The notes below the pieces were generated by a model. It made no database searches, had not been told where the DNA came from, and was given only the letters and a program-made list of their open reading frames with translations. This document shows positions 122 to 57,831 of a stretch of 64,000 nt of DNA, in pieces. Both the position numbers and the translations under genes were made by a program. Source of the DNA: Nitrospirota bacterium (GTDB lineage Bacteria > Nitrospirota > Nitrospiria > Nitrospirales > Nitrospiraceae); assembly GCA_963701855.1 (NCBI GenBank), contig CAVPBK010000006.1:288001-352000 (forward strand). Reading direction: 5' to 3'. Every line of letters starts with the position of its first letter. The stretch's first letter is position 1.

Positions 122-539
122 ACAACGCTCCTTCTATGTCAATTGCGCACCTGGCTTGCTGCGTTTCATCAATGATGCAGGTACCCCGACACGGTGCCAG
201 ATTCCATCACGGAGCCTTTCCTCACACGCAATTCTCATTGCCAGGATTCGCGAGGCGATGACCCCACCGAGGAAACCGATGGAGTTCCAGTTAAGATCGT
301 GTTAACGGTGGGGAGGTCGCGTGTAGGATCATGCCCAGAGAGGCAAATTTTACAACGTCCTTCAGCATCCGCTCCGCATCCAACCTAAATTTCCTCGTCC
401 TGATGTAGGAAATGGTGCAGATGCTCGGCGTGGATCACGGCTTCGAGTTGCTCCCTCGCGTCCTCGATTCGATCCTGCTACTTCTACATTCGCCAAGAAC
501 ATGCGCGCGTTAGGGACATTCACGTAGACAAGACTTGAA

Positions 540-593
540 TTTACGCAACGATAACAAGTCTCTAACCGCAGCGCAATGCTGGCCTGGTAGAAT
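540..593 (+). promoter_or_regulatory. 11-bp-periodic direct-repeat box plus extended -10, upstream of the CBS gene
   Basis: TTTACG(540), ATAACA(551), CTAACC(562), GCAATG(573); TGnTAGAAT with the hexamer at 588, 15 bp after the last unit start. Confidence 0.55.
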
Positions 594-634
594 CATGCCA
601 ATACAAAATAATCAATATTTAAGGAGGAGAAAAG

Positions 635-1018
635 ATGGTTACAGTCAGCCAACTCATGAAACGGGACCTCGTGACGGTGGACTCCGGCACCTCAGTCGTC
701 GAAGCTGCCAAATTGATGAAAGCCTGCAATGTGGGCTTCGTGTTGGTCGCCCACGATCACCAGATCATCGGCATCGTCACGGAGTCGGATGTGGTGAGAA
801 AATTCGTGGGAGCCGACAGGGGACCCTACTTTGTTCCCGTCGAAGACATCATGAGCAGTCCGATCGTCGGAATAGAAGAACGCCGCCCGCTCACTGAAGC
901 GGCAGACCTCATGAATAGGCATCAGACGCACCACCTGGGCGTCACCAAGAGTGGGACGGTGATTGGCATCCTCTCCGTCCGCGATTTGCTCCATCCTGTC
1001 TCCATCGACGAATTCTAG
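635..1018 (+). CDS. CBS domain (tandem CBS pair) protein
   Basis: 127 aa: VSQLMKRDLVTV...IIGIVTESDV and VEDIMSSPIV...VIGILSVRDLL. AGGAGG RBS. Confidence 0.9.
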   Translation: MVTVSQLMKRDLVTVDSGTSVVEAAKLMKACNVGFVLVAHDHQIIGIVTESDVVRKFVGADRGPYFVPVEDIMSSPIVGIEERRPLTEAADLMNRHQTHHLGVTKSGTVIGILSVRDLLHPVSIDEF

Positions 1019-1092
1019 CCGTCAACCTCCTAATCAACTTTCCTGATCCCTCGTTTCCACCGCATTCGATGCGGAGGAGACGGGGCTCGCTT

Positions 1093-1220
1093 TTGTTTGT
1101 CTTGTTCATTTGGTCTGTTCGGTCTATCTGGTCTGTCTCGTGTATTTGGTTGTTTGGTTGCTCTGGGTCGAACAACAAACACGATAGGCCGGATCAACCA
1201 GATGGACCAGATGGACCAGA
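1093..1220. repeat. Degenerate 9-bp tandem repeats arranged as two inverted arms (9-mer family)
   Basis: Left arm TTTGGTCTG/TTCGGTCTA/TCTGGTCTG; right arm TCAACCAGA/TGGACCAGA/TGGACCAGA, ending at the regulator stop codon. Confidence 0.8.
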
Positions 1221-1907
1221 CTAGGCTCGCAGCTTGTATCCCACACCCCTGACGGTCAAGATGAAGGTCGGACTGGAGGGGTTCTGCTCGATCTTCTGCC
1301 GGAGCGAATGAATATGCACATCGAGCGCGTGCTCTTCGAGCGCATATCCTTCTCCCCAGACCCGGTTGAGCATCTCCTGGCGAGAGAACACGCGGCGAGG
1401 TGATTCGAGGAACTGCTTGAGGATCTGGAATTCTTTTGGGGTCAGATCGATGGCATGGCCGTTGACCAGGACTTCGTGACGATCGAGGTCCATCCGAAGA
1501 TTCCCCGCGTGATATTGGGTGTTCGTCTCGACGCCGGCGTCTCGGCGTCGAAGGATGGCGCGCACACGGGCGACCAGCTCACGGATACTCTGGCCGCACA
1601 CGATCAAATCTACATCCTCATCATATCCTAGAAGACAGTTCTCATCCTGGCAGGAGATGCTTCCCTCCTGCACCGCGACGATTGGAACCGTGTTCAGCGC
1701 GCTGACCCGACGAAAATTGGCGATGGAACTGGAGTGTAGGTCGAGAATAATCAAGGATGGCGCGTTCGTTTTTGCCTCTATGAGAGCAAGAGACTCCGTG
1801 GTCACCGCCGTGCCGCGATACCCACTCGTTTCCAGCGCCTTCTGCAACGACTGCGCGAAGGACTCGGATTTCAGAAAGATGATCACCGAATTGCGTACAC
1901 TTGTCAT
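1221..1907 (-). CDS. OmpR/PhoB-family response regulator with a degenerate receiver domain
   Basis: C-terminal winged helix LTPKEFQILKQFLESPRRVFSRQEMLNRVWG...LDVHIHSLRQKIE...ILTVRGVGYKL. Start taken at MTSVRN (1907); the ORF track extends to 1961. Confidence 0.9.
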   Translation of the reverse strand: MTSVRNSVIIFLKSESFAQSLQKALETSGYRGTAVTTESLALIEAKTNAPSLIILDLHSSSIANFRRVSALNTVPIVAVQEGSISCQDENCLLGYDEDVDLIVCGQSIRELVARVRAILRRRDAGVETNTQYHAGNLRMDLDRHEVLVNGHAIDLTPKEFQILKQFLESPRRVFSRQEMLNRVWGEGYALEEHALDVHIHSLRQKIEQNPSSPTFILTVRGVGYKLRA

Positions 1908-1963
1908 GGATGAGTTACCAGTCAACATTGCATAGTCATCATCAACCAGGCTCAACAACAAAT

Positions 1964-1991
1964 CGTTACGCCGGTATTAATTGCTCGTTAA
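1964..1991 (-). promoter_or_regulatory. 11-bp-periodic box upstream of the response regulator
   Basis: Minus-strand TTAACG, TTAATA, GTAACG at exact 11-bp spacing. Confidence 0.55.
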
Positions 1992-2038: not shown

Positions 2039-2092
2039 TTAACACCGATTTAACAATTGATTGATCTCGTGGTAATGACACACTGGTATCCT
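2039..2092 (+). promoter_or_regulatory. Pho-box-like tandem repeats and -10 of pstS
   Basis: TTAACA(2039), TTAACA(2050), TTGATC(2061), GTAATG(2072); TGnTATCCT with the hexamer at 2087. Confidence 0.7.
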
Positions 2093-2258: not shown

Positions 2259-3308
2259 ATGACACAGTATCGCCGCCCGGCCTCGGTGGGTCTCGGCCTC
2301 TTTCTTGTGCTGCTCTTTGCGGTAGCCTTCCAAGTCTCTGGTCAAGTCATGCCCTCGCTGGATCCCAAGATCCCTCCCTATCAGCGCGTGAGCGAGCTGA
2401 CCGGCACGCTCGCCGTTGCAGGATCGGACACCATGAAACCGTTGACAGAATCATGGTCGGCAAAACTCAAACAGCTATATCCCGGCCTCTCGATCAAAGT
2501 GGAAAGCAGAGGATCCGAGACAGGGCTGGATGCGCTGCTGGAAGGGAAAGCCCAGATCGCCGCGATGTCTCGGCGTATGACGCAGCAGGAGGTCGTTGAT
2601 TTTAAGCGGGAATTCGGCTATGAACCGACTGAGGTTCCTGTTGCCGTGGATGCACTGGCCGTCTTCGTGCATAAAGACAACCCGATCGAGGGATTGTCTC
2701 TCGCTGAACTGGATGCCATCTTCTCCAAAGAACGGCGACGCGGGTTGGAATACCCTATCAAGCGGTGGGGCGACGCGATGGTGTTCGAAGAGGAATGGGC
2801 GGAAACGCCTATTCAGATCTACGGGCGGAATGGGAATTCCGGTACTGCGTTATTCTTCAGAGAACACGTCTTGAACGGGGCTGATTTTAGGAAGCCCATG
2901 ACGGTGGGCGTCGGGTCGGCCTCGGTCGTGATTGAACTGATGAAGGATCGATTCGGAATCGGATTCAGCAGCATCGGCTATCGGACATCAGACCTCCGAC
3001 CTGTCCCCTTGGCAACGGTCAAGGGTGGACGGTATGTGACGCCGACCTTTGAGACGGCAATGGATGGGTCCTATCCTTTGAGACGCAACCTATATCTCTA
3101 TATCAACCGGCCGCCGAAAGTCGCACCGCCAGGGCCGCTCGCGGAGTATGTGAAATTCGCACTGAGCCAACGAGGACAGAAAATTGTCTTGGACCAAGGG
3201 TATTATCCGCTCCCAACGATAGAACTAGACCGACTGATCAAGATGTGGACGCCCCCTGTGTCTGTGCGAACCGCAGCCGCTGAAGAACCAGCCAAGACCC
3301 AGAACTAG
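2259..3308 (+). CDS. pstS: Phosphate ABC transporter substrate-binding protein
   Basis: Signal peptide; motifs AGSDTM, GSETG, AAMSR, VAVDALAVFVHKDNP, GRNGNSGT, IGFSSIGY, YPLRRNLYLY. GGAGG RBS before ATG 2259. Confidence 0.92.
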   Translation: MTQYRRPASVGLGLFLVLLFAVAFQVSGQVMPSLDPKIPPYQRVSELTGTLAVAGSDTMKPLTESWSAKLKQLYPGLSIKVESRGSETGLDALLEGKAQIAAMSRRMTQQEVVDFKREFGYEPTEVPVAVDALAVFVHKDNPIEGLSLAELDAIFSKERRRGLEYPIKRWGDAMVFEEEWAETPIQIYGRNGNSGTALFFREHVLNGADFRKPMTVGVGSASVVIELMKDRFGIGFSSIGYRTSDLRPVPLATVKGGRYVTPTFETAMDGSYPLRRNLYLYINRPPKVAPPGPLAEYVKFALSQRGQKIVLDQGYYPLPTIELDRLIKMWTPPVSVRTAAAEEPAKTQN

Positions 3309-4294: not shown

Positions 4295-5737
4295 CTAAAA
4301 ACTCCATTGGAGTTGGAACCTGACCAAGTTGCCGGTTTGGAGCTGGTAGGGGGTCTGGCTGCACGAGACCTGCGAGGAGGAAGTGCCGCAGAAGCTATTG
4401 GCAGGAAGGGTGGCCGAATCCCCCGAGGTTCGCTGCGTCCATGAATAGGCAACGGTCAATTCGAGCGAGCGATTGAACTGATACTCGAGCCCCAGTTCTG
4501 TTTCCCGCACCGACTGCTGAGGCGCATTACTCTGAAGCTTCTGGCCGCCGAAATATTCTTGCGTGCGTACATACGGAAAGATGCTCTGGCAATAGGTGTC
4601 GCATTTGTAGTTGTAATACAATTGAACATACCCGCCGTGCAAGGAGCCGAGTTCCACCGCCGTCCGATCGTTATTCAGTTGAGGCCCCCTCCCAATCAGA
4701 TACTCCGCCTGAAGGCCGAACGGTTGCGGAAAGACGATAAGATTCCAAGTGACCCGTTCGTCGAGATAATTCCCATTGTTCGTGGCTAGAGGCGAAACCG
4801 GGACTCCATCCGTTGAATTGGTGGGCACGACAGGAGAGGTTGACACGACGATTTCACCCGTATAGGCGTCCATCCCGACCTGGACGATTTGACCGTTGGA
4901 AAACTCATGGGGATACGCCGAGTGAAATACCACATGCTTGTTTTTGTTCGCATCTTGCTGATCGATACCCTGACCATTGTAGACCCCGATGCCCAACATG
5001 CCATAGTCGCCTGACCCTTTGAGGCCGCTCTCCACCAACCGCCGGAACCGCTCGCGCACCACGGTCGGCGCGTAATAGAGAAAGACGCCCAGATTGCGCT
5101 CATTCGGGACTGCGCTAAAGGTCGCATCATTGCGGTCGAACGCCAGCCGGTTTTGGCTTGACTGCACGGTCTCGAATCCAAACGGTATCTTCGACTGCCC
5201 GGGCCGGATCCGCCATTCTTTGTTCGCTGTGAGATAGATATCGGCATAGGCATCTCTCAGTACCACCGTGCCTTCATTATTGTTGCCTTGCACATTGTTG
5301 ACGAAGCCTGCGAATTCACCCTGCAGATAGACGAATACGCGATCGTGAGGCTGGCCGCTCACAATGAGGCGGGCGCGGCGCAGAAAGAACTCGTTGTTCT
5401 TGACGATCGAGCGATCACCCGGGGAAGTCAGGTTCTCACTATTTGGCGTGGAACTGTAGCGGAATTGGGTATAGCCCCTGATACTGATCTTTTCATACCA
5501 TCGTTCCCGGACAGGCACATCGCCAATCCCCCGGCTTTCTTCCATGACCTTCGCTTCCCGTTTCTCTTCCTCCGCTTTCAGCCGGACCCACTGATCGAAG
5601 GTGATCTGCTTATTCTCCAGGAGGACGTCCTCAGTCGGACCTCCCCAGCCATCATTCCACCAGCACAAAGAAAGCAGGGTGGCGATGAGAGCAATCTTAA
5701 ACGTTCCTCTCATTGCCCCAAAAAACCAATCGCACAT
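4295..5737 (-). CDS. Phosphate-selective porin O/P (OprO/OprP-like)
   Basis: Signal peptide; IRGYTQFRY, FFLRRARL, LRDAYAD, GQSKIPFGFETVQSS, GVYNGQG; C-terminal FQLQWSF. Start uncertain (5737 or 5713). Confidence 0.85.
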   Translation of the reverse strand: MCDWFFGAMRGTFKIALIATLLSLCWWNDGWGGPTEDVLLENKQITFDQWVRLKAEEEKREAKVMEESRGIGDVPVRERWYEKISIRGYTQFRYSSTPNSENLTSPGDRSIVKNNEFFLRRARLIVSGQPHDRVFVYLQGEFAGFVNNVQGNNNEGTVVLRDAYADIYLTANKEWRIRPGQSKIPFGFETVQSSQNRLAFDRNDATFSAVPNERNLGVFLYYAPTVVRERFRRLVESGLKGSGDYGMLGIGVYNGQGIDQQDANKNKHVVFHSAYPHEFSNGQIVQVGMDAYTGEIVVSTSPVVPTNSTDGVPVSPLATNNGNYLDERVTWNLIVFPQPFGLQAEYLIGRGPQLNNDRTAVELGSLHGGYVQLYYNYKCDTYCQSIFPYVRTQEYFGGQKLQSNAPQQSVRETELGLEYQFNRSLELTVAYSWTQRTSGDSATLPANSFCGTSSSQVSCSQTPYQLQTGNLVRFQLQWSF

Positions 5738-5783: not shown

Positions 5784-5837
5784 AGGATAGGGAGGAAGGG
5801 TTACAGGCAGGTTACGATGGGGTCCGGGATGGGTTAA
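5784..5837 (-). promoter_or_regulatory. Pho-box-like repeats and -10 of the porin gene
   Basis: Minus strand TTAACC, CGGACC, GTAACC, GTAACC at 11-bp period, then TATCCT 15 bp after the last unit, the same geometry as at pstS. Confidence 0.65.
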
Positions 5838-6030: not shown

Positions 6031-7443
6031 TTAAGGCAGCCGACCACTCGACACCGCCGTGCCCCTGAATTGCTGCCAATTCTGCCTAAGAAACTTGAAC
6101 CAGGACAGTGGAAAGCCGGATGAGTCATTGACAGAGTCGACTCGACTGGCGATGTCTTTGAAATTGGGGTCGGCCTCATGAATTTCACGGTACTGCTCGT
6201 AGGCTTCATCGCGGTGGCCCAACGAATCCAGCGTCAGTGCCAGAACATAGCGGACATGCAGGATATCGCTCGTCTTTGCGCCATTGACGGCAAGAGCATG
6301 GCGAAATGACACGGCAGCGTCATCCAGCTTTCCGATCGCCCGCAAACAGAGTCCCCGTTGTGCCGAGGCCTTGAAGCGGTAGGCCTCGTCCCCTTCCGCC
6401 GCCTCGAATTTCTTTAGCGCCTCCCGATACGATCCCGCTTGTTTCAAGTCAAGCCCTTTTCCATACAACTCAGCGGCGGCATTCTCATGGACTGAAGCCA
6501 CAGGTGGTGCAGGAGTATCGTGTTGCACAAACACGGGAACCGGCACCGGCGTCGGCACATGCTCCTGATATTCCTGACTGAGCCGGGCCGGATCGAGGAG
6601 AATAGTCCTCGGATCGGCAACGGCCGGGAGGATGCCTCCTTGCGCACGATCAACGGCAGCCTGCAACAACAACGAAGCAGTAATGCGGTCAACCCCTTCC
6701 CCGAAGCCATACATGAGCGCCAGATCGCACAGTTGATTGATCAGGCGGGGATTGCCGCCACTGAGTTGATGGACCAGCGAACAGGCGTACTCCGTTAAGA
6801 GATCAGGCTCGCCCCCTGCCACGTGGAGCCGATGCTGCACGTAGGCGTTCGCTTCGTCTTCGTTGAGCGGCTCGAGCGCATAATCCACTGCCACGCGTTG
6901 AGCCAATTGCTGCATGTCGCTTCTGGTGAGCAGTGTGCGAAGGTTGGGCTGTCCCGCCAAAATGATTTGTATACTGCTCTGTCGGCCGTCATTGATGTTG
7001 GACAGGAGACGGAGGTCTTCCAGCATTTGGATGTTGAGGTTTTGGGCCTCATCGACGACGAGGAGTACTTGCTGCCCCGCGGCAAAGGATCGCCCGAGAA
7101 ACGCTGTGAGCGCCCGGAAGTAACCGACCGTATCCTGGCCGGGACAATCCAGTCCGAACGCATCAACCACCCATGGCAGGAGGCTGCCGGCGTCCGGATG
7201 GGTCGTCGTAATGACTCCAATGGTAATCGAATACTGCCCCCTGCTCTGGTCAAGAACCTTGTTCAACAGTGTCGTCTTGCCGGTCCCCGGCTCTCCTGTC
7301 AGTACCGTGAACACCGCGCGGTTGAAGAGTCCGTACTCCAGGAGATTCAATCCCTTCTTATGCCGGGTGCTCAAAAAAAGGAACTCGGGGTCCGGCAACA
7401 ACGAAAACGGTTTTGTGCGGAACTTATAGAATGACTGGTACAT
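6031..7443 (-). CDS. ExeA-like AAA ATPase of PEP-CTERM/exosortase loci, with C-terminal TPR repeats
   Basis: MYQSFYKFRTKPFSLLPDPEFLF, Walker A GEPGTGKTT, Walker B VVDEAQ, GGNPRLIN; helical TPR-like tail. Confidence 0.88.
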   Translation of the reverse strand: MYQSFYKFRTKPFSLLPDPEFLFLSTRHKKGLNLLEYGLFNRAVFTVLTGEPGTGKTTLLNKVLDQSRGQYSITIGVITTTHPDAGSLLPWVVDAFGLDCPGQDTVGYFRALTAFLGRSFAAGQQVLLVVDEAQNLNIQMLEDLRLLSNINDGRQSSIQIILAGQPNLRTLLTRSDMQQLAQRVAVDYALEPLNEDEANAYVQHRLHVAGGEPDLLTEYACSLVHQLSGGNPRLINQLCDLALMYGFGEGVDRITASLLLQAAVDRAQGGILPAVADPRTILLDPARLSQEYQEHVPTPVPVPVFVQHDTPAPPVASVHENAAAELYGKGLDLKQAGSYREALKKFEAAEGDEAYRFKASAQRGLCLRAIGKLDDAAVSFRHALAVNGAKTSDILHVRYVLALTLDSLGHRDEAYEQYREIHEADPNFKDIASRVDSVNDSSGFPLSWFKFLRQNWQQFRGTAVSSGRLP

Positions 7444-7450
7444 GAAGTGC

Positions 7451-8299
7451 CTACCTTCTCTGTTTCGCATCCCCCACATTCATACGCTTCATTTTGGACA
7501 GGCTGAGTTGATCGCGGCCGACTTTATTCAAAACGGTTCCCAGGATCGGGACGCTGCCTTTTAAGATCTGCATGGCCTGCTGGAGTTCAGGCTCCGTGGT
7601 CTTGCCATCCTCCACAACCAGAAGCAGCGCGTCCAATTGGGGAGTGAAGGCCAGCGCATCCGCCTGGCCGAGAACCGGCGGAAGATCGAAAATCACGATG
7701 CGAGACGCGTAACGACTTTTTAACTCTTTTCCGAGCGCACTCATGCGCGGGGAAGTGAGAACTTCGGCAGACTGGTCCGTCCCCCGCCCACCCGGCAACA
7801 GGATCAGTCGACCTAGACCCGGATAGACTAACATGTCCTCGATCGACCGGCCGTCCAGCAGAAACTCCGTCAGTCCCTCGCAGGATTCCAACCCAAGCTC
7901 CTCATGAAGGTGCGGAGCGCGAAGATCGGCATCCACCAGGAGAACCGTGAGAGTGGGCTCGGCCGCCAGGGCGATGGCCAGGTTAATCGACGTGAGGGTC
8001 TTGCCTTCTCCGTCCTTAGGGCTGGTGATGCCCAACGCATTCCATTTATTTTCGCGTAATCGATGAATCACCTGAGTCCTGAGGACTTTGTAGGCATCCG
8101 AAAACTGGTTCGAATCTCGGCCGGTGAGAATGCGATGGCGTCGCAAAATCTCGTCGGGAATCACGACCGAACGGGTCCGCGAATAGATTACGGTCGGCGG
8201 TGCGGCCACCTGTGACGCGTTCGGCTTAGGAGGCACGTGCGGGGCATCGTGTTGCTCCTTAAATCGATCCATCGCACTCTGCAGTTTGTCTTTGATCAT
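7451..8299 (-). CDS. CpsD/CapB-family tyrosine kinase (Wzc kinase domain)
   Basis: DAYKVLRT, ITSPKDGEGKT, LLVDADLRAP, IFDLPP, GTVLNK. Confidence 0.9.
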   Translation of the reverse strand: MIKDKLQSAMDRFKEQHDAPHVPPKPNASQVAAPPTVIYSRTRSVVIPDEILRRHRILTGRDSNQFSDAYKVLRTQVIHRLRENKWNALGITSPKDGEGKTLTSINLAIALAAEPTLTVLLVDADLRAPHLHEELGLESCEGLTEFLLDGRSIEDMLVYPGLGRLILLPGGRGTDQSAEVLTSPRMSALGKELKSRYASRIVIFDLPPVLGQADALAFTPQLDALLLVVEDGKTTEPELQQAMQILKGSVPILGTVLNKVGRDQLSLSKMKRMNVGDAKQRR

Positions 8300-8328
8300 G
8301 AGGGGAATATCTCTTCCTTCGTAGGTAC

Positions 8329-8437
8329 TCAGGGGTTCAGGTGAAGGCTGAAGGTATAAATGATCGCGCAAGACACGGACCAAACCATTCAACATCGTCG
8401 AAGCCTAATCCCTATAAGCCTTCAGCCTATCTACCTG
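8329..8437. repeat. GGCTGAAG-family inverted tandem-repeat element
   Basis: TCAGGGGTTCAGGTGAAGGCTGAAGG ... CCTTCAGCCTATCTACCTGA; homologous copy at 16184-16323. Confidence 0.7.
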
Positions 8438-8448
8438 AGTCGTTAGCT

Positions 8449-10194
8449 TCATGCAAGGCCGAACTTTCTGAGCGCCGTAAACCAAAGAACATCCAACGGG
8501 GGCCCCATCGCCAGCACGGACACGATCAGCAGCACCACCACCCCCGCTCCCGCCACGGCAACCCGGACTCGATGCCTGACCAATCGCTTGAAGTCGTCTT
8601 GATTAGGAAGATAGGGAATCACGGCCAGTGGAGGCAGTCCCGCAAGCCTGCTTAGATGTTCGCCGCCGCGAATCGACTGATTGAGGTGCTCCAGCACCGC
8701 GCCGCTTCCGATTCCTCCCGCAATGGCGAGAATCAGACCGAGAAACATAATGACGGGGCGATTGGGTTTCTCCGGCTTCTCCGGAAGCTCCGGTGGATCG
8801 ATGAGAGAAAACCGTTCACCTTTATGCTGAACTTCCAACTCTTTCGACACCTCCGCTTCCAAGAGGCGGGATACGATCTCCTGGTGCTTTCGAACCGATC
8901 CTTCACGATTCCGGCTGAGATCCAGGTATGCAGGTTCAAGTTCGATCGTCCGTTCGAGCCGGCTGGCATAGGTATCGACACGGCGTTTAATGCCTTCGCG
9001 GGATTTTCGAGTCGATTGGAGCGAGGCCGTCACCGAGGAGAGTTGTGAGCGAATATTGATATAAGCGGGATTTTCCGGCTTGACAGCGGCGGTCTGGATC
9101 CCGGCCGCCACGACACGCTGCAGTTCCTGTTCAAGCGAGGCAATGATCTGGCGTGATCGGATCACATCGGGATGTTCATCGCCATATCTATCGACGAGAC
9201 TCGCCAGACGGGCCTGTTCTCCGCTCAGCTTCTTGTGCAATTCTTCGGGCGTAGCGTGCTGGCCGGTTTCTCGTTCCAACGCGGCAATCTCTTGCTGCAT
9301 CTTGAGCACGTCTGGATGTTCAGACGACAAATACCCGACCGCGCTGGCATACTGGGCCCGAAGAGCTTTCAGCCGTTCAGCCGAATCGAGAATGCGCTCC
9401 CCGCTCGCCGAGATCATCGGCGTGTGTGGCTTCAGCGTAGCCAGTTCCCCTTCCAGGTACGTTTTCTTTTCCTCGAACGAGCGGATTTCGCGGTCGGCAT
9501 CCTGGAGTTCACGTTCGGCCTGATTGAGCATCGTCATGTTGAGCGAGGTCAGCTCCGGCAGGGCTCCGTCCGCCTTCTGCTTGACCGCAGCAAGTTGAGA
9601 CTCCAGCGTGCCGATATGTTGAGCGAGCTGTTCAGATTCCTTTTTCAAAAAGGCAGTTGTTTCATTGGCATGTCGCTCGCGCGACTTGAGATTTTCCCCC
9701 AGAAACAGACTCGTGAGTTCATTGGCCACCTTCTGCGTAATGCCAGGACTCTCTCCCTCGTACGTCAGCGTGAAGGCGATCGTCGCCTGCGACGGGCTTT
9801 GCGACCGTTTGTCGATGACTTTGGCATTGATCACATCCACACGAATGTCCTTCGTAAAACGTTCCAGCACTTCTTCCGTGGGACTATTTCGGCGCAGACT
9901 CGAATAGAGCCCGTATTGTTCGATGATCCCCCAGAGGGTCGACCGCGTCATGACCTGCTGCTTGATTGTCTCGATCCGTTGATCGGCATAGCTGGTGATC
10001 GCGGACCGGACGATGTCGGAGGGGATCTCCTGTTCCTCGATCAGGATAGTGGCAGTCGAGCGATACACGGCAGGCAGGAGCAGGGCAACCGCAACACCGG
10101 TGAGAAAAATCATGCCAGCAGCCAGTGCGATGGACCCTTTCCGTCGACGAGCGATGCTCCAGATTGCCTGCAATTTCACTGGTGTGTGTTCCAT
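8449..10194 (-). CDS. Polysaccharide co-polymerase / chain-length determinant (GumC/Wzz type)
   Basis: N-terminal TM, LPAVYRSTATILIE, coiled coil with HPDV motifs, FSLIDPPELPEKPEKPNR, C-terminal TMs. Confidence 0.9.
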   Translation of the reverse strand: MEHTPVKLQAIWSIARRRKGSIALAAGMIFLTGVAVALLLPAVYRSTATILIEEQEIPSDIVRSAITSYADQRIETIKQQVMTRSTLWGIIEQYGLYSSLRRNSPTEEVLERFTKDIRVDVINAKVIDKRSQSPSQATIAFTLTYEGESPGITQKVANELTSLFLGENLKSRERHANETTAFLKKESEQLAQHIGTLESQLAAVKQKADGALPELTSLNMTMLNQAERELQDADREIRSFEEKKTYLEGELATLKPHTPMISASGERILDSAERLKALRAQYASAVGYLSSEHPDVLKMQQEIAALERETGQHATPEELHKKLSGEQARLASLVDRYGDEHPDVIRSRQIIASLEQELQRVVAAGIQTAAVKPENPAYINIRSQLSSVTASLQSTRKSREGIKRRVDTYASRLERTIELEPAYLDLSRNREGSVRKHQEIVSRLLEAEVSKELEVQHKGERFSLIDPPELPEKPEKPNRPVIMFLGLILAIAGGIGSGAVLEHLNQSIRGGEHLSRLAGLPPLAVIPYLPNQDDFKRLVRHRVRVAVAGAGVVVLLIVSVLAMGPPLDVLWFTALRKFGLA

Positions 10195-10239
10195 GATCCT
10201 CTCTGCTTCACGCAGTCTCAAAATTGAACTCGCCGTCCT

Positions 10240-48291: not shown

Positions 48292-48301
48292 CTTTTCACC
48301 T

Positions 48302-48380
48302 AGTCCTGAGTGCTGGGTGCTGAGTACCGAGTTGGAGAGATCTTGCCCTTCTCAGCACTCATCGCTCAGCACTCAGAACT
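48302..48380. repeat. 7-mer (TGAGTGC/GCACTCA) inverted tandem-repeat element
   Basis: AGTCCTG AGTGCTG GGTGCTG AGTACCG AGT ... CTCAGCA CTCATCG CTCAGCA CTCAGAA CT. Confidence 0.75.
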
Positions 48381-48390
48381 TCCCCATGTT

Positions 48391-49173
48391 CTAGTGTCCT
48401 GTTGCCGCGCCAGAGGGTTCCGACTCTTGGCGGTGTCCACCCGGGCGGTAGTCCTCGATATCTTCCTGCGCGGACGCCGCCTCGTTCTTCTCGCGGAGAT
48501 ACTCCGTCATAAACACGGTTTCGAGATGGGCCGCGAAATTATCGAGTTCCATCGTGAGTGTTTTAGTCTTGGTCACCAAAAAGTTGTAACAAAAGAGCGA
48601 GGGGATCGCGACCATGAGGCCTGCGACCGTGGCAATGAGCGCCGACGCGACGCCGGGCGCCATGGTCGTGAGCGTGGCCTGCTGGGCCCGACCGATGCCG
48701 GCGAAGGTATCCATGACCCCCCAGACCGTCCCGAGTAATCCAATAAAGGGCCCACCGCTGATCGCCGTCGCCAGCACGATCATCCCGGACTCCAGACCTA
48801 CCGCGGCTTCACCGAGAACCCGCTCCAGCGCGATCCGGATGGCGCTCATGCCGTGATTCGGGACCTTGTCGGTCCCGTATTTTTCCTGTTGTACTTTCAA
48901 TTCCTCGCACCCTCCATAATAAAGCTCATACATGGGGGAGCCTTGGAGCTGCTTGATCGGTCCCTTGCTGAAGATGATCAGCGGGCTTTTCGCCTTCGAA
49001 TAGAGCCCGAGAAACGTCGCGTTCCGCTTCTTGGCCTTCGCCAGTTGGCGGAACTTGTTGATGATGACCGTCCAGCTGACCAGCGAAAACACCAGCAACA
49101 CCGCGATCGTGATCTTGCCTTCCAGCGTGGCGTGGTTGAGCGCAAACGCCACTCCACCAGAACTCATATCCAT
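48391..49173 (-). CDS. exbB: MotA/TolQ/ExbB proton channel protein
   Basis: GPFIGLLGTVWGVM, APGVASALIATVAGLMVAIP. Confidence 0.92.
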   Translation of the reverse strand: MDMSSGGVAFALNHATLEGKITIAVLLVFSLVSWTVIINKFRQLAKAKKRNATFLGLYSKAKSPLIIFSKGPIKQLQGSPMYELYYGGCEELKVQQEKYGTDKVPNHGMSAIRIALERVLGEAAVGLESGMIVLATAISGGPFIGLLGTVWGVMDTFAGIGRAQQATLTTMAPGVASALIATVAGLMVAIPSLFCYNFLVTKTKTLTMELDNFAAHLETVFMTEYLREKNEAASAQEDIEDYRPGGHRQESEPSGAATGH

Positions 49174-49193
49174 TCGCGGGACTCCTTCCTTGA

Positions 49194-52100
49194 TTAACTG
49201 GCCGGCTTGACATCAACCTGAATGACGACCCCGCGCTTCACGCGGATTGATTTCGCCAGTTGGCTCTTGCCGTCTTTTTCATCATCATTCTTCGACGCCA
49301 CCTGTTTGGATTGCGCGTTCTGACTGGACACCTCGGCGGCGGTTTCCTGAACAGAATCAGAAGACTTAGCTGAGGTGCTGACCGCCGCCTGGGTGGAGGA
49401 GACCGAGGCGGTCGCCGAGCTTCCGGTCACCGGAGTGACCGGTGTCGCCACAGCCCCCGTTCCGGTTCCGGTAATGCTCAGGGGCGGACCGCTGACGCTT
49501 ACTGTGGCAGGAATGATGACGTTGCCGATGATTTGACCGCCTTGGTTGTCGACTTTCGGAGCAAATATTTGGACGGTTCGACCTTGGATGCCTGCGGAAG
49601 GGATGATGACGCTGCCCCGTTCAGCGACCAGATTCACATCACCCAATTTCAAGGAGTTGATGTACGGCTTGAGCACGGTCTCATTGAAGATCGGCTGACG
49701 CTGGGCCTGCAGTTTGTTCGCCTGCGCAAGAAGCGCCGCGGCCGTGGCTGTGCGGCCGAAAAATGTTTCTCTTGACGCCTCATTCTTCAAAGCCGTGATC
49801 TGCGGATCGTTGAACTGAATGAACTTGAGCGGCCTGGGATCGTCCGGATGGAAGGTCGAAATGCCGCTGCTCGGCGCGTTAACGTGAAGATCCGGAACCG
49901 TTTTTCCCGTGACTGGATCGTTAGGTTGCGCAATTGTGATATCGGTGGATTCATTTCTGGATCCACTGCCTGCGTTAATGTTGCCATTGGTTGAGGTGAG
50001 GTTGATATCGCCACCGTAAAAGGTTGAGATTCGCGACTTCTCAACGTTGATATCGCCGGTTGCAAGTACGTCGATATCGCCGCCGCCGAGCGTCGAAATC
50101 CCAAGCGGCGCTCCCCTAAGAGCAGGATTCGAGGAGACGTTGGTGCCGACGGTGACGATTCCCGGCAACGATTGCACCTTCGCCACTTGACTGGCCTGAG
50201 CCAACAACACGGTCCCATCTGGAGCCTATCAGCACGAACTTTCCATTGACCAGCACCGGATCGAATCCCGTCAGCGTTTTGCCTGCATCGAGCGGGACTT
50301 CCGCGCGAACAACTTGGTACGGCTGTCCATTTTTATCGAGGAGCAGCTTGCCCCCCTGCTCGGCGAAACTCAAATGAAGGGTGACGGGACTGACCGAGTC
50401 GGCGAGGGTTTGCGCTCCATCCAATATCACCGGATTGTTGTTGAATTGCAGGATCTGTCCGTTGACCGAGATCTCCGACTGACCATTCGCATCCTGTACC
50501 ACCGTGCCGGTCACCACCACCGGTTTGCCACTTGCACTGATCACGTTGCCGCTGCCGTCGAGAATGGGGGTGGAGCCGATGCCATGGATGGAGATCGGCG
50601 CACCGTTGTAGGTTGCGATCCGCGACGAATCCATCTTGATGGATCCCCCCACGGAAATATCGAGAAAGCCCCCTTGGTTCTTGGCCCCGTTCAGAACCGG
50701 CGAGGAGTGGAAGTTGATGCCTGTGCTCGTTGCGAGATCCATCAAATCCCCGACGGTCACCCTGCCGGTGCCGGTCCCGTTGAACGTCAGATCGCTCGCC
50801 GTAACTGAGTTCGTGCCTGTCGTCACACCCGCCGTTCTCATATTGAGATTATGGCCGGCAACCACTGTGGCCACGACCCCGGCCGGCACCCCGATTTTAG
50901 CAGTCGTGGCTACAATATCATTCGCGGCCTGGATGGTCACCTGCTTACTGAGCGGCACGCTCTCTAGATGAAACGTCAGGGTCTGAATGTTGCCGGACCG
51001 AGCCTCGATCAGGACGGGCGGGGGAACTGCGGGCTGAGAGATCACATTTGTGGTGCGCGCCGTCAAAAAAGACAACCTAAACTGCTTTGGAACGGGCATG
51101 TTATTGAACAGAGTCGGATCCTGCTCCAGCAATGTCACAGAGGGCACGGTCGTCGAAACCGTCTTCAAGGGAAGACCACTGTTGCCCGGGTTTACAATCC
51201 CGTTGACGCTCTGAAGCTTCGTCGTCCCGACAAACGGGGCCAAGGTTGGATCGGCAAGCGCGTCCGCAAGCTTCACCAGTTGCCAGTGGCCACCCGGCAC
51301 ATTCGGAAATCCGATAAAAATGTAACCATAGCTGGTGTCAATAATCTGGCTTGTTTGCTGGACGCCGATCAGATCCTTCCCGGCGGACAGCGTCAAGGCC
51401 CCGGTCGGTGAGGGCCATAGTTTGACATCGTGTTCGATGAAGATGCTGCCGGTTTTTGTCGTCGCGCTAAAGGACGCCGGATAGATCTGGGCGATATTGT
51501 TGGTAGCATTGCTGGTCTGATTGGTGATCGTCCGCGGATTGAGGAAAATGTCTCCTTGGGCATTGAGAACGGCGCTATTCGAAGGATCCACTGTCATTAT
51601 TAGATTAGAGCCGGGAGTCGCATCCACAACCCCCTTGTCAGCCAACCTGCCGAGGTATATGTTGCCGGTCTGCGCTGTGAGGTTGATCGTTCCCTTGCTG
51701 AACGTGATGTTGGCATATTCATCGGGGTCCGTGGGATTCACGCCCACGGTCGGACCACCGATGTTTCGTCCGGCTGTCACGTTCGCCGTCCCGTTCGTGA
51801 GAACAAATCCGGGTCCCGTCAACACACCACTCACGACGCCGCCCCTGACATCGTTGCCCGCAGTAATCGTGAGATCGCCGGGGCCATCTAAACGGATGCC
51901 CCCCAATACACCTGACCCAACGAGCCCCGTGGTGTCTGTCGCGCTCGGACTGACAACATCGAGTCCCGCCGTCAAGGTGATATCGCCGCCGGCTGCAGAC
52001 GTTCCTAAAACAGAGAGGTTGCCAAGACTATCGACCAGTTTGATATTTCCCTGCGGCGCCGTGAAAGTCAGGTTGCCGCCAAAGCCGGTTGTGACGAAGC

Positions 52101-53426
52101 GAGTTGTTGAAGAGCACGTCACCTGTCGTGGCCGTGCCGACATAGTCCCACCTGGTGTTCGAGTTGTTGTTGGTCAGCTGCGCATTGTTGAAGATCAAAT
52201 TGGCGCCGGCCAGGAAGGTCAGGGTGCCCGGCGTACCGGAGAGGGTCCATCCGGCGCCGAGATCATACTGCCCGGTCACAACGAGATCGCTTCCTGCCGG
52301 AGACTGAAAGGTGACGCTCGATGCGCCGCTGCCTTCGAAACTCGCGAAGTCGGCCGGCCCCACCGTTGAGACCGTCGGATCGATCAAGAAACGCCCGCCA
52401 TGGAAGCCGGCGAGCGTCCGGCCGAGGAATTGGCCGCCTAATCTTACTGCGGCGCCGCTCACTTCGGCAAATCCTCCGTTGCCTCCGTTCCTGCCTCCGG
52501 AGACGTCCACCACGGCGCCCTTCTGAAATGTGGCCGTGCCGTTCTTCAAGTCGGCGATGGCGCGGATCGTGCCTCCGTTCGAACTCCCTTCATCGTTTCC
52601 GCGCGCAAGCGTGCGGCTCCCGTCCTGCAGCGTGACGGCCTCGCTGGCGAGCAATTCGATTTTTCCATTTTGTTCGCGCACGCTGTCGGCCCGGATGAAG
52701 CCTGCTTGATTGACCACCCGGCCGGCCAAGGTGATATTGCCGCCGTCCGCAATTAAATCTTTGAGGTTCACGGCTTGTCCGAGGGGGTTGGAGAGTTCGG
52801 CCAGAAACCCTCGCCCGTCGGGCCGGTTCGACAGAAAGGCTGTCGCGCCGGCGGCCAAGACAATGTTTCCCCCTGGACTCGTAATCACCCCGCTGTTTTC
52901 GACGTTGGGCGCCAGCAAATACACGCCGTCGTGCGATCCTTGAATCGCGCCCATGTTCTTGACCGATTCCCTCGATGCCCGTTCCTTGGAACAGATAGTG
53001 GCCGGCGAGAAAATTGGCGCTCGACAGATTCAGCGACGACGCAATCAGCCCCCCGACGTTGACTTGCGCATTCGGACCGAACACGATCCCATTGCTGTTG
53101 AGGAGGATCACCGTTCCGTTGGCATGCAGCGACCCGAAAATCTGGCTGGGATTTTGATCGAAGATTCGATTGAGCGCAATCGCCTGGACATTCGGCTGAA
53201 TGAACTGCGTCACTTCGTTCGGCGCGATATTGAACTGCTGCCAGTTGATGATGGCCTGTTGAGAGGCCTGCGCGATCGTCACGTGCGAGGTGCCGAGGCC
53301 CGACACCGCCGCGTGGCCTCCCACCACGACTGGCCCGGTCGGATTGGCCAGGACGACTGGCACGACTACCAGTTGCGCGAGATATGCGAACAGAATCAGA
53401 CCGGCGGCAATCTGTTTGTGTCTCAT
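49194..53426 (-). pseudogene. Filamentous haemagglutinin-family TpsA (about 1400 aa), split by three single-base frameshifts (real or sequencing error)
   Basis: TPS domain IINWQQFNI..NPSQIFGSL.ANG.V.L.N.NGIVFG; beta-helix repeats; C-terminal GDINVEKSRISTFYGGDI..NGNINAG resembling DUF3739. Frames 52590-53426, 52028-52954, 50116-52143, 49194-50210; shifts near 52965, 52098, 50222. Confidence 0.85.
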
Positions 53427-53464
53427 GTTATTTTAATTCCATTCATTATTGCCATCCATCTTCG

Positions 53465-55304
53465 TTAAAACGCGAGACCGACGGAAAAATGCACGAACGT
53501 GTCGCCCCGCTTCGTGGTCGCGGTGTCTTGGAGCGCGAATCCTTGATCGATGATGAGCTGCCCCACATCCTTGGGAAACTTCACGCGAATCCCAGCCCCG
53601 ACCCCTTCGAGCCGGAATTGTGACGTCTGCCCAGGCTGCGCGTCCTGCACCCAGAGTTGGGCGGCATCGTAGAAGGTGGCGAACTTTACTTTGATCGTGT
53701 AATCGGCACTGCGTCGGCGCTGCCAGATTCGATCAATCGGGATGGAAATGAGTTCCGGAGTCGTCAGTTCCGCTCGACCGCGGACGGCATTGTCGCCGAT
53801 CGCTTGGTACTGAAGGTACCCTCGAACCGTATCAAATCCTCCGGCAAAATAATTTTCGGCGGGAATCAACGGCTGGCTTCCCCATTGGCCATCGGCATGA
53901 AGCGCCAGCGTAAAGTCTCCCGGCAAGGGCTGCGCACGATCGAGCCCGCCCTGCAGCACGGCAAATGTCCCCGTCGATCCTTGGCGGTTGCCCGGCTGGC
54001 TGGGATCGTTGGGATTTCCTGCGAAATCCTGCTCCGTTCCGCCAGGGATCGTGCCCGCAATATAGCCCTTGGCCGACAACGACAGTTTCGTCAGACCCAA
54101 TCGATCCGGATAGAAGCCGGTATAGGCCACTGACGCCGGAGTGTACTGAACCGGACTCTTCACCACTGCCGTCCCACCGCCAGGAAATGTCGCGTTCGAG
54201 GGCTCCAGTCGTTTGTAGTCAACCCCGACTGACAGTTGATGCGTGTTCGATCCTCCGGAAAAAATCGGGAATATATAGCGAAATCCCGCGACGGTTGCAT
54301 TGCCGGCGATCGCGACATCGCCTCCACCTCCGAGTGAAATGCCCGACCCTGCCAAGACCGAGTTACTTTTCGAATGGGAACCGTAGACGGCCAGCAGATG
54401 ATCGGGCCATCTTACCGGGTAGACGAAACTCGCTCCGTAGTTCTGGACTGCGCCCCAATCCGTCGGCGTCTGGACCGTATTGACCGTGAAAATTTCGTCC
54501 CCACCGAAAAGATTGGTATGTTGAACTTCTGCGAGTAAACGATTTTGGGGGGTCGTGATCGGTCCCCTGTTATCGGCTTCCAGCTTCCCGTGAACCGGCA
54601 GACGATCTTTTACTTTGAGTTCGAGATCCACCGTTCCCGGCTCCGTGCCGGGCTTCAGCACCGGCGCCACTTGGAGATCCGGGTTTGCATTGATCGCCGA
54701 GAGTTCTTTCACGAACTTAGGCTCATAGAGCACTGTTCCGATCTGGATGGACGGCAGTTTTTCGAGAATACGGTATCGGTTGTAGTACTGCTGCCCCGTC
54801 ACCTTCACTTCGACGAGAGGGGCTTCAATCACTTGGAGTGTGACGCTACCCTGCTCGATGGTCTGCTCCGGAAGGTTCACCAGGACGGTGGGATACCCCG
54901 CCGCGTGATAGGCCTTCTCCAGCTCGGCACGCGCCTGGTCGACTTCCTTGAATTGAAAGGGGGCGCCTTTGTATTTGTCGAGAATCTCGTCGATCTTCTG
55001 TTGGATCAAGATCGTGTTGCCTTCGACGTTGAATTTCGACACAGTCATGGCGCCCGGCCTTACCTGCTCCGGCCGGCCGTCTTGATTCGGGACGGGACCG
55101 TTCGTGCCCGGTTCTCCCCGCATCGCTCGTGCGCCGCTCTTGGTCATCTGCACGCGTGGCAGACAACCCTGATAGTCTGCGTGGTGGAGAGACGATCCCT
55201 GGATCCTGATGGTTCATCGCGCCCCCCATTGCTTCCGATGTCACCCCAAGCCACACGAAGCACAGGACTATCCCAGCTAATACCTTCCCCGACTGATACT
55301 TCAT
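53465..55304 (-). CDS. ShlB/FhaC/HecB-family TpsB transporter; the signal-peptide segment is out of frame (shift at about 55155-55213)
   Basis: POTRA FNVEGNT..YHAAGYPT..LPEQ; DNRG; GGFDTVRGY; C-terminal F. Signal peptide MKYQSGKVLAGIVLCFVWLG lies in a different frame. Confidence 0.88.
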
Positions 55305-55455
55305 GCTCCATTGCTTTCCCCGGAACAAAGAGAGTTTTGTACTCTGCTCAGGGAGGTTTTCTAGACTCCGGGCAAGGACGAAGTCTTCTGCGTAGTTCTG
55401 CTGTCCGACAAATTATCGGCTCGCGTCCAAGAGGTTCAATAGTGAATATAGTGGA

Positions 55456-55509
55456 GAGATACTGGTACAGCGTTACGGAATTGTTATCGAGGCATTTGGC
55501 AGCTGTTAA
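55456..55509 (-). promoter_or_regulatory. 11-bp-periodic box upstream of the tpsB-tpsA-exbBD-tonB operon
   Basis: Minus strand TTAACA, CAAATG, ATAACA, GTAACG; TATCTC 15 bp after the last unit. Confidence 0.55.
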
Positions 55510-56552: not shown

Positions 56553-56641
56553 TCAATCTCACACTCTCGATCGTCCCCCTACGCACATCCTCATGTGGGG
56601 TTTCTCACCTCTACGTTTTTGACCAACTGATCATCGCCGAA

Positions 56642-56696
56642 TTAACCGAACGTTAATCTTGGCGTAATGGGTACGTCATTGGGGATGGAATAAGGT
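56642..56696 (+). promoter_or_regulatory. 11-bp-periodic box upstream of the OMP gene
   Basis: TTAACC(56642), TTAATC(56653), GTAATG(56664), GTCATT(56675); TAAGGT at 56691. Confidence 0.6.
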
Positions 56697-56772
56697 GGCT
56701 CGGACTTTTGTCGACTGATTTTGCACACCTTTGCGTGCAGAGTCTACCCATCGGGACTTAGGAGGCGTGGAA

Positions 56773-57570
56773 TTGAATCGGCTCGTAACAATTGGTGTCT
56801 TGGTTCTGGTGTTCCTCCTTCAGGTGGAGCCGGCTCGAAGTGAATGGTACTTGGGCGGCTACGGAGGCTATAGTGCGGCCCAACCGCTTAAGGATGTCAC
56901 CATGAATAATTATGGGTATAACTTGGCGGTGAACCGGTACGGGTATGGCCCTAGTAACGCAGAGTTTGGAGACAGCTTAACCCAAAACTTCCAGACCTCT
57001 GACCTGTCTCTTAAGCAGTCTGCTCTCTTTGGCGGGAAGGGTGGATATTTCTTCAACGACGAGGGCTTCTCGTGGCTGGGCGTGGAGTTGGAAGCGTTTA
57101 CGACGACTCCAACGATCAAAACGCAGACTGTAACAACGAACCAGGATATCACATTTCTCCTTGGTCCAGATCACGCTCCCGGAGCTTGCCCTTTGCCACC
57201 ACCAAATACCCAGTGCTCAGTCCAGGAAAATTTGAAATCGACGTTGCCCCTGACCCAAAGCACGCTCCGCTTGGTCACCGTCATCTTCAATGTGGTGGCT
57301 CGTTATCCAGGAACAACCTTCCAACCCTATATCGGTGTCGGAGGCGGCGCCTTCTACTTCAATAGCTCAGGCCAGATTGATGGCCGTCAAGTAGTGCCGG
57401 GGTTCAACGCACAGGCAGGATTGAAAGTGCTGGCGACTGAGGAGTGGGGGCTCTTTGTGGAAGGGAAGTACAACTACGCTACGATCACAAACCTCGATCC
57501 CTCCGGCTATGGACTCAGCGGCACATACAGCGCCTTCAACATTCTTGGCGGCGTTGCGTACCACTTTTAG
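56773..57570 (+). CDS. Outer-membrane beta-barrel protein (OmpA/OmpW-like 8-stranded type)
   Basis: TTG start after GGAGG; signal peptide; EWYLGGYGG, FQPYIGVGGG, GLFVEGKYN; terminal YHF. Confidence 0.85.
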   Translation: MNRLVTIGVLVLVFLLQVEPARSEWYLGGYGGYSAAQPLKDVTMNNYGYNLAVNRYGYGPSNAEFGDSLTQNFQTSDLSLKQSALFGGKGGYFFNDEGFSWLGVELEAFTTTPTIKTQTVTTNQDITFLLGPDHAPGACPLPPPNTQCSVQENLKSTLPLTQSTLRLVTVIFNVVARYPGTTFQPYIGVGGGAFYFNSSGQIDGRQVVPGFNAQAGLKVLATEEWGLFVEGKYNYATITNLDPSGYGLSGTYSAFNILGGVAYHF

Positions 57571-57584
57571 CAGAGTCAATATCG

Positions 57585-57672
57585 TTGTTTGGCTTTTTTG
57601 GTTTGTCTTGTTTATTTGGTTGAACCGGACGAACCAGATAAACGAAATCAACCAGATAAGCAAAACAAACCA
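57585..57672. repeat. 9-mer inverted tandem-repeat element
   Basis: TTTGGCTTT TTTGGTTTG TCTTGTTTA TTTGGTT / GAACCGGAC GAACCAGAT AAACGAAAT CAACCAGAT. Confidence 0.8.
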
Positions 57673-57781
57673 GCGTGGGATTGCTTCACGCCCCGGCTTG
57701 GCGTTTCTCCGAGCACTCGCTCATACGAGAGGGACCCTTGTGATTGAAACAGATGCAGTCTCGTCTCGCTCCGTCTCGCCG

Positions 57782-57831
57782 TTAACAGTTTATTAACTTA
57801 TTCGTAACTGTAATTACTGTAGGTAATTACA
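57782..57831 (+). promoter_or_regulatory. 11-bp-periodic box upstream of the Fn3-like repeat gene
   Basis: TTAACA(57782), TTAACT(57793), GTAACT(57804). Confidence 0.55.

Follow-up and report, generated by a model that had tools for sequence, protein, structure and literature searches.

Tandem 11-bp repeats point to a probable island-borne Pho regulon joining phosphate uptake to an exosortase/exopolysaccharide system in Nitrospira

In a 64,000-nucleotide stretch of a Nitrospirota genome (the window; G000:C6:288001-352000, from a genome of 4.30 Mb in 15 contigs), tandem repeats with an 11-bp period precede genes for phosphate uptake, three exopolysaccharide (EPS) operons and a two-partner secretion (TPS) operon. 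We suggest, with a probability of about three in four, that these repeats are Pho boxes and that a PhoB-driven Pho regulon, concentrated in the genomic island to which the window belongs, couples phosphate uptake to a second exosortase/EPS system. Close homologs of one window protein are annotated as Nitrospira or Nitrospiraceae and amoA is present in the genome; homolog names and amoA together identify the host as a comammox-type Nitrospira. Throughout, C-numbers denote contigs, G-numbers genomes and L-numbers fetched loci, and genes outside the window stem from our own codon model (4223 genes), with rough starts.

An original prediction, made from the sequence alone, had placed one Pho-box-like motif before almost every transcription unit of the region. 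All 12 sites that it reported exist, keep an 11-bp phase and are aimed at the next gene on the same strand, although several of its minus-strand positions give the far end of an array instead of the first unit (Table 1). A 13th array had been overlooked. "Almost every" unit comes to 13 of 17 by our count; a strong box is absent before the PIN antitoxin-toxin pair, wecB, the gene at 35164 and gspC (ranks 259-396 of 2534 promoters with a matrix derived from other genomes). Across C6:272000-346200, a same-strand gene is faced by 20 of 20 intergenic dimer matches of at least 11 bits, some of which overlap. The unit consensus is approximately N-K-T-A-A-C-A every 11 bp, usually in four units, equivalent to two regulator dimers; the Bacillus Pho consensus is TT(A/T/C)ACA. 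A TAnnnT hexamer 15–16 bp past the last unit, claimed for six promoters, is present at four (CBS, pstS, porin and the 56773 gene) and imperfect at the regulator and TPS promoters. The offset of 59–60 bp between first unit and -10 at the three EPS promoters is exact, and TATCCT is indeed the -10 hexamer at both pstS and the porin.

The exact pattern KTAAC-N6-KTAAC occurs 18 times in the genome, and nine copies (two overlapping, one intragenic) fall into the window, which makes up 1.5% of the genome. Genome-wide, the 18 copies at period 11 represent only a modest excess over other periods, which have 2–12 exact copies, and with one mismatch allowed period 11 (215 copies) does not rise above other periods (156–244). 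The evidence therefore lies in clustering and promoter position, not in the total count. In a test free of post-hoc choices, comprising 35,134 tandem patterns with periods 9–13 in 218 windows of 64 kb (the window under study being listed twice), the window ranked second, with top patterns that were all TAAC variants at period 11. First rank went to C7:1-64000, which contains 10 of the 26 copies of G[CG]TCA repeated every 10 bp; these probably belong to a dispersed repeat family. A first matrix was built from 11 units of four Pho-gene promoters outside the window (pstSCAB-phoU, phoB2, phoX-like and mgsA-phoU type). Seven of the 19 promoters that it scored at 12 bits or more lie in the window, which holds 37 of the 2534 promoters, compared to 0–1 at periods 9, 10, 12 and 13. 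A second matrix was built from one pstS promoter of each of 13 other genomes, with 23 of 36 PstS-family loci left out; the island, with 49 of the 2534 promoters, accounts for 15 of its top 25 (0–2 at other periods). With the better of its two- and three-unit models, all 12 reported sites are among the top 28 of 2534, at period 11 only. Both matrices and the intergenic counts thus show that the motif is not as common before unrelated genes; equal frequency there is what the original prediction had named as a refutation.

Outside the window, the repeat also stands before pstSCAB-phoU on C11, there in four units, and before a second phoB gene 15 kb to the left of the window, a phoX-like gene and an mgsA-phoU unit. 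Moreover, when 36 PstS-family loci from 15 genomes were scanned (threshold 11.5 bits, period 11), a pstS preceded by a box was present in all 10 genus genomes in which the OmpR-family regulator encoded at 1221-1886 of the window was not found, and in three of five genomes from other families; among the 36, the more distantly related loci for binding proteins lacked it. Given its presence at pstSCAB-phoU and at the core pstS of all ten relatives without that regulator, we regard the repeat as the Pho box of Nitrospira, with PhoB as its most likely reader. In keeping with this assignment, at least two direct repeats at 11 bp stand before pstS, phoU, porin and phoB genes, one promoter class shows the expected -10 spacing without a -35 element (see below), and a cognate PhoB/PhoR pair is encoded. 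The Pho-box reading of the original prediction is thus upheld by canonical Pho promoters outside the window and by the core pstS of relatives, in which the EPS, VPLPA-CTERM and TPS sites are also kept.

Boxes are also found elsewhere in the genome. A second Pho cluster (C11:245800-256845), directly after a type II secretion system (T2SS) operon, comprises an Slp-like lipoprotein gene with a five-unit box, genes for a 498-aa exported protein and a 309-aa lipoprotein, and pstSCAB-phoU. Outside both clusters, strong arrays lie at C6:788103 and C6:1175482, one before a gene for a 56-aa protein with two CxxC motifs, the other without a clear downstream gene.

The genome contains six OmpR-family genes. 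PhoB1 (C6:475301) adjoins a PhoR/PnpS-type kinase (C6:476073), and a PhoB-like regulator is present in 62 of 62 genomes; PhoB2 (C6:272322), an orphan located in the island, is 73% identical to PhoB1 and has the same recognition helix. The best NCBIfam match of both is PhoB (TIGR02154), and the kinase scores over the PnpS cut-off. The PhoB2 promoter carries the top-scoring box of the first matrix, of whose training set it is part, and ranks 4–7 with the second. The original prediction had proposed the regulator at 1221-1907 as a candidate binder. In an alignment, the receiver region of this protein (1221-1886 in our annotation) has lost the acidic pocket, Thr and Lys and kept only the Asp, and hence does not represent an intact receiver. 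Its recognition helix reads HALDVHIHSL compared to RTVDVHIRRL in PhoB; HALDVHIHSL is found in 14 of 15 aligned members (one with V for I), and the most distant has HTVDVHVHSL. The changed positions presumably correspond to base contacts in E. coli PhoB. The regulator was found in 24 of 62 genomes, and, because its gene has a conserved box of its own, it is probably itself a Pho target. As the box occurs in genomes where it was not found, its phosphorylation pocket is lost and its helix differs, it is less likely to be the main binder; as the sole binder it is rejected by the boxes in the ten genomes mentioned above.

Three cysteines in its receiver region (SC.DE.C ... C.Q) are kept across most relatives, and arsenic genes lie in the same island; the cysteines may possibly sense metal, arsenite or redox state. 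Two or three copies of the regulator occur in G011, G003, G071 and G051.

The boxed promoters fall into two classes. In class A (pstS, porin, CBS, phoB2 and mgsA-phoU), the last unit lies 15–16 bp before the -10, strictly so in the window for the CBS, pstS, porin and 56773 genes, and a -35 element is lacking. In class B, found at the EPS operons, TTAAC, TTAAC, TTGA and GNTGCC stand at 0, 11, 22 and 33, followed by a -10 at 59–60, which places the array one helical turn further upstream than in class A. Class B comprises 25 distinct copies, which are spread over 11 of the 62 genomes and stand before unrelated cassettes of EPS genes whose first members encode XrtD, GT4, GT2, MurJ, WecG, WecA, a flippase, a dehydrogenase, a GNAT protein or, in one case, an open reading frame (ORF) without a family, and is a marker by which such EPS operons can be found. 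The class A geometry is not seen here: the -10 is at +59/60 in 25 class B copies and at +48/49 in none of the 21 non-window copies listed. A consensus -35/-10 pair is absent at the EPS promoters, and TTGA was rejected as a -35 because the -10 is not at the right distance. The search did not initially select for TTGA, which emerged from the EPS-region sites of the two-unit matrix; TTGA also occurs as third unit at class A promoters, and the island pstS shares the first three class B units.

Between 11 sequence clusters of class B copies, identity is 0.86–0.98 in units 1–3, which are partly fixed by the search pattern, 0.62 in unit 4, 0.66 at the unselected -10 positions and 0.25–0.28 in the flanks. 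Chance or recently duplicated promoter DNA without function might be suspected, given that two of the three EPS promoters in the window share about 40 bp; yet the footprint, with units and -10 kept and flanks at background identity, and the enrichment tests refute this explanation, to which we attach virtually no weight. An unrelated protein reading a palindrome (TTAAC-N5-GTTAA) could also occupy the EPS promoters, in which case EPS would not be under phosphate control. Class B units 1–2 can indeed be read as an inverted repeat in 21–25 of 25 sequences at five positions, and the -10 offset is unlike that of every class A promoter. However, the symmetry follows from the self-complementary GTTAAC, only 10 of the 25 sequences have the inner pair and none has the outer, units 3 and 4 keep the 11-bp phase, and the island pstS shares three units. 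The test is partly circular, the search pattern having fixed some positions; the palindrome is the weaker reading compared to a direct repeat, and we consider it improbable.

An inverted repeat, ATCGCT-N9-AGCGAT, lies between unit 4 and the -10 exclusively at xrtD-type class B promoters (L030, L033, L044, L117, L122, L063), with a two-sided change in G053. It is possibly a second operator.

The exosortase encoded behind the first class B promoter exceeds the TIGR04152 cut-off (550.9 compared to 400), and three VPLPA-type tails are encoded at 41787-46424 (with TIGR03370 matches below cut-off), identifying an exosortase D/VPLPA-CTERM system. Among 30 exosortase D loci, a class B box is present at the six where the gene directly follows the island promoter, the gene is located mid-operon in four island loci, and no box above 9.2 bits was found at the loci outside the island. 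The genome has another PEP-CTERM/EPS cluster (C11:173-235k) with prsK/prsR, prsT and another exosortase; its intergenic DNA contains one box match in 13.9 kb, compared to 12 in 11.4 kb for the island.

This second cluster bears on the idea that PrsR and sigma-54 act at the EPS sites, which would then be PEP-CTERM boxes. Motif 1 of Haft 2006 ends in TTTACA, near TTAACA (PMC1569441), prsR is present in the genome (C11:183544) and TTGA-N10-GC resembles a -24/-12 spacing. On the other hand, prsR is found only on C11 and the island lacks prsK/prsR, GA instead of GG is present in 25 of 25 copies, and a sigma-70-type -10 lies at a fixed distance. In addition, no sigma-54 site (TGGCA-N-TTGC) was found in the window or its intergenic DNA, a weak control, given that the same loose scan found none in the C11 cluster either. 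We consider this explanation very improbable.

A conserved element, GGAGGTATCAAGCCCGTTCT, lies about 250–300 bp before exosortase D genes outside the island (L090, L091, L092, L093, L097, L100, L104, L105) and was not found in G000. It could be an ops-like antitermination site or another control site.

The window forms part of a phosphate island of about 75 kb (C6:272k-346k), which comprises phoB2, dksA, a phoX-like gene, phoU and ppk in addition to the window genes and has arsenic-resistance-type genes and insertion sequence (IS) remnants at its ends. Of the 62 genomes searched, 11 carry the island, genomes with amoA as well as genomes without it being among them. A link to comammox was rejected: class B is present in seven genomes with amoA and in four where amoA was not found. 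Gene order is kept, with boxes in place, in seven relatives (G015, G011, G003, G017, G046, G053 and G054). The EPS export proteins are only 45–75% identical in four of the seven relatives plus G015, whereas ppk and phoU of G015 are 97–98% identical; EPS cassettes have thus evidently been swapped while the control sites stayed. No tRNA gene was detected in the window and L014/L015, so that a tRNA integration site was not seen, and the GC profile is flat except at EPS operon 2. Three sediment RNA runs of one study gave 5–9% shared words and contigs of relatives only, with every bin covered. Taken together, motif identity, promoter specificity and conservation in relatives support, as a predicted regulon, the originally proposed unit of phosphate uptake, EPS, exosortase-anchored proteins and TPS/TonB.

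Several points weigh against a PhoB-driven regulon of this extent. Both PhoB copies score below the TIGR02154 cut-off (246 and 226.5 compared to 296), and the phoBR operon itself, pstS3 and arsR of G000 are without a box. Class B departs from canonical boxes in its invariant TTGA third unit, conserved spacers (0.62–0.68) and shifted -10. The relatives are kin sharing the island, so their counts are not independent, and their RNA contigs show neither start sites nor levels. tpsA, wecA and wecG are split in the present assembly, and some of the regulon output may no longer be functional in this genome. In some cases, even verified Pho boxes do not confer phosphate regulation (PMC4415409). Finally, all 11 class B genomes carry both the atypical regulator and PhoB2, which makes a second protein at class B conceivable.

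In such a two-tier feed-forward scheme, PhoB would induce the atypical regulator, which would act independently of phosphorylation and be required at class B alone or beside PhoB, with PhoB on the TTAAC pair and the regulator on TTGA/GNTGCC. The regulator's own conserved box and its nearly invariant helix, unlike that of PhoB, are consistent with this scheme; intergenic arrays with a TTGA third unit occur in 16 of 24 genomes with the regulator and in 0 of 38 without it (five matches there are infA-like coding sequence), and a precedent exists in S. meliloti EPS II, controlled by PhoB plus WggR (PMC3233446). Regulator, PhoB2 and EPS genes are, however, physically linked, such that little can be read from their co-occurrence; a TTGA third unit is not confined to class B, being present at class A promoters such as that of the island pstS; and in G044 and G014 the regulator is retained although no EPS cluster adjoins it. 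Most genomes with PhoB2 in which the regulator was not found are fragmented or have lost the remainder of the island, so genome comparison does not separate the roles of the two proteins. We regard the scheme as a whole as rather unlikely, and a co-activator role of the atypical regulator at class B as doubtful. Equally speculative is a more far-reaching version, in which the island would be a portable phosphate-starvation coat programme, with the atypical regulator, as a Nitrospira-specific protein induced by PhoB, independent of phosphorylation and perhaps sensing through its cysteines, joining PhoB in a mixed tandem array on a reusable cassette before swapped-in EPS genes and replacing PrsK/PrsR/sigma-54.

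Under the PhoB-driven regulon that we favor, the PhoR-type kinase (C6:476073) would phosphorylate PhoB1 (C6:475301) upon phosphate limitation, and PhoB1 would bind the promoter of its orphan paralog PhoB2 (C6:272322), thereby amplifying the signal. Head-to-tail PhoB dimers would activate sigma-70 promoters lacking a -35 element, with class A promoters using the E. coli geometry and class B holding the array one helical turn further upstream. The island would in this way link phosphate uptake and saving to a PrsK/PrsR-independent exosortase D/EPS system, VPLPA-type surface proteins and a TPS-ExbBD-TonB module. PhoB binding, use of the -10 hexamers, operon induction and the amplification loop are what we infer from motif, position and conservation.

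In E. coli, a Pho box is a pair of 11-bp direct repeats located 10 bp before the -10 (PMC4415409, PMC1906773). The present system resembles the E. coli regulon in its period, the class A position replacing the -35 and the targets pstS, porin, phoU, ppk and phoB, and differs from it in the island unit (KTAAC(A), not CTGTCAT), the class B shift, the orphan second PhoB and the unboxed phoBR operon. The TTAAC/GTAAC core and the presence of three or more units are shared with the SphR box of cyanobacteria, CTTAACCT in a minimum of three tandem copies (PMC1906773), and the PhoB repeat of D. vulgaris (PMC3333781). These are from other phyla; the predicted targets in the present system include exosortase/EPS operons. 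In the P. aeruginosa PUMA3 system (pdtA, pdtB, exbB2D2, tonB4), PhoB controls pdtB-exbBD-tonB, and a Pho box lies upstream of the -35 at pdtA/phdA (PMC4971064). A TPS pair with ExbBD and TonB, predicted PhoB control and a box upstream of the -35 position rather than replacing it recur here; an extracytoplasmic function (ECF) sigma factor was not seen in the island, and the -10 is sigma-70-like. Two proteobacterial plasmids encode TpsB relatives near a binding protein and a porin; T2SS genes are also present in one of these loci, phoU and phoX in the second. Scanning both for boxes of the E. coli type gave one match in L267, before an endonuclease gene, and none in L268, and thus no support. 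As in S. meliloti, where EPS II (wga/wgd/wge) is under PhoB and WggR (reviewed in PMC3233446), EPS operons carry Pho boxes and may have a local co-regulator, but here the EPS is of the Wzx/Wzy type and accompanied by exosortase D and sorted surface proteins, and the candidate for co-regulation belongs to the OmpR family, as an atypical member, instead of being a MarR protein. As in the PEP-CTERM/EpsH system, which relies on PrsK/PrsR/PrsT and sigma-54 and for which Haft et al. left the PrsK/PrsR stimulus open (PMC1569441), genes for an exosortase, PrsT, CTERM proteins and EPS occur together; the island differs in lacking prsK/prsR and a sigma-54 site, and the arrangement with prsK/prsR lies on C11 instead.

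It appears that an exosortase/EPS system has been transferred from PrsK/PrsR control to control by phosphate. While the mechanism itself is textbook knowledge, the novelty lies in the Nitrospirales Pho-box consensus, the reused EPS promoter cassette with shifted geometry and the target set. Full-text searches, from which subscription journals were mostly missing, yielded no paper that describes a Pho box in Nitrospira or an exosortase system controlled by PhoB, and no statement on PhoB was found in PMC6606698. The consensus and the ranked predicted regulon concern the dominant nitrifiers of filters, groundwater and soils that are poor in phosphate. Phosphate shortage is predicted to switch on slime-coat and surface-protein genes besides uptake, the accessory exosortase/EPS system answering to phosphate instead of PrsK/PrsR, which would tie phosphate supply to aggregation and biofilm formation in island-bearing lineages.

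Table 1. Arrays and genes of the window (offsets of -10 hexamers are counted from the first unit unless stated otherwise)
Feature	Coordinates	Strand	First unit	Remarks
Pho-box array, 2 units, before single-domain receiver gene ending left of window	290..305	-	305	rank 20/2534; kept in G015, G046, G066
Pho-box array, 4 units, before CBS-domain gene	540..593	+	540	-10 TAGAAT at +48; kept in most orthologous promoters
Pho-box array, 3 good and 1 weak unit, before atypical regulator	1954..1991	-	1991	rank 3, three-unit model
Pho-box array TTAAC/TTAAC/TTGAT/GTAAT, before pstS	2039..2092	+	2039	-10 TATCCT at +48
Pho-box array, before porin	5784..5837	-	5837/5815	-10 TATCCT 15 bp past last unit; kept in 7/7 syntenic islands
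Class B (EPS-type) promoter, EPS operon 1, 4 units	23023..23088	-	23088	-10 TAGAAT at +60
Class B promoter, EPS operon 2, 4 units	34291..34355	-	34355	-10 TAGAAT at +59
Class B promoter, EPS operon 3, 4 units	41133..41198	-	41198	-10 TACAAT at +60
13th array, before short ORF and VPIAA-tail gene	42963..43027	-		kept in G015, G011, G046
Degenerate five-unit array before VPLPA operon	46686..46734	-	46734	rank 14, three-unit model; first and last unit kept in G046
Pho-box array before TPS operon	55445..55509	-	55509/55487	intergenic region common to gspC; kept in 6/6 relatives whose DNA covers the site
Array TTAAC/TTAAT/GTAAT/GTCAT before beta-barrel-like gene	56642..56696	+	56642
Three-unit array, 338 bp before secreted three-repeat protein	57782..57808	+	57782	kept in G015
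CBS-pair protein	635..1018	+		PF00571
Atypical OmpR-family regulator	1221..1886	-		PF00486 present, PF00072 absent; winged helix intact; start maybe up to 14 codons earlier
PstS-family phosphate-binding protein	2259..3308	+		PF12849, TIGR02136
Phosphate-selective porin O/P	4295..5737	-		PF07396
EPS operon 1	6031..22983	-		dehydrogenase, heparinase-like, wecG (split), exosortase XrtD, wecA (split), prsT, wza, outer-membrane protein, wzc pair, ATPase; prsK/prsR absent
EPS operon 2	26327..33982	-		polymerase-like membrane protein, GHL10, flippase, two GT4, methyltransferase
EPS operon 3 (acylation)	36356..41056	-		GNAT, deacetylase, acyl carrier protein, acyl-CoA ligase, FabG
Protein with exosortase-type C-terminal tail	41787..42425	-		VPIAA variant
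Two VPLPA-CTERM-like proteins either side of distant PstS-like secreted protein	43484..46424	-		TIGR03370 below cut-off; PF12849
tpsB, tpsA (four ORFs in present assembly), exbB, exbD, tonB	46862..55153	-
GspC-like protein, second copy in genome	55581..56552	+		NF041515; own strong box absent
Outer-membrane beta-barrel-like gene	56773-57570	+
Secreted three-repeat protein	58120-59367	+

Profile searches bear out the gene content originally read from the translations, that is a CBS protein, an OmpR-family regulator, PstS, a phosphate porin, three EPS operons with exosortase D, CTERM proteins, tpsB/tpsA, exbBD, tonB and gspC. Some genes are split: tpsA comprises four ORFs (49194-53426), and 14674-16165 and 17989-18722 represent wecA/wecG with two ORFs each, due to assembly errors or decay; tpsA matches are broken near the same place in several relatives as well. 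The PstS-like secreted protein between the two CTERM genes (44323-45609) has look-alikes in Verrucomicrobiota and Pseudomonadota clusters. Its single-sequence fold has a predicted local distance difference test (pLDDT) score of only 33. The protein, which has a weak PDB match (E 0.03), is a candidate surface phosphate-binding protein.

At the right end of the window (61128-64000) and in L015, an IS110 remnant and an NADH dehydrogenase-like gene are followed by arsR, a methyltransferase gene, an ACR3-like transporter gene, a third pstS, before which a Pho box is absent, and an arsC-like gene. The secreted protein at 58120-59367 consists of three near-identical repeats of about 105 aa and has no family match; paralogs are encoded at C6:1290k and beside the C11 PEP-CTERM cluster. 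Low-complexity repeats of the AACCAGA/AAACAAA type are scattered in intergenic DNA (2120-2230, 3330-3440, 24900-24960 and 41210-41260) and also occur in relatives and in the RNA contigs.

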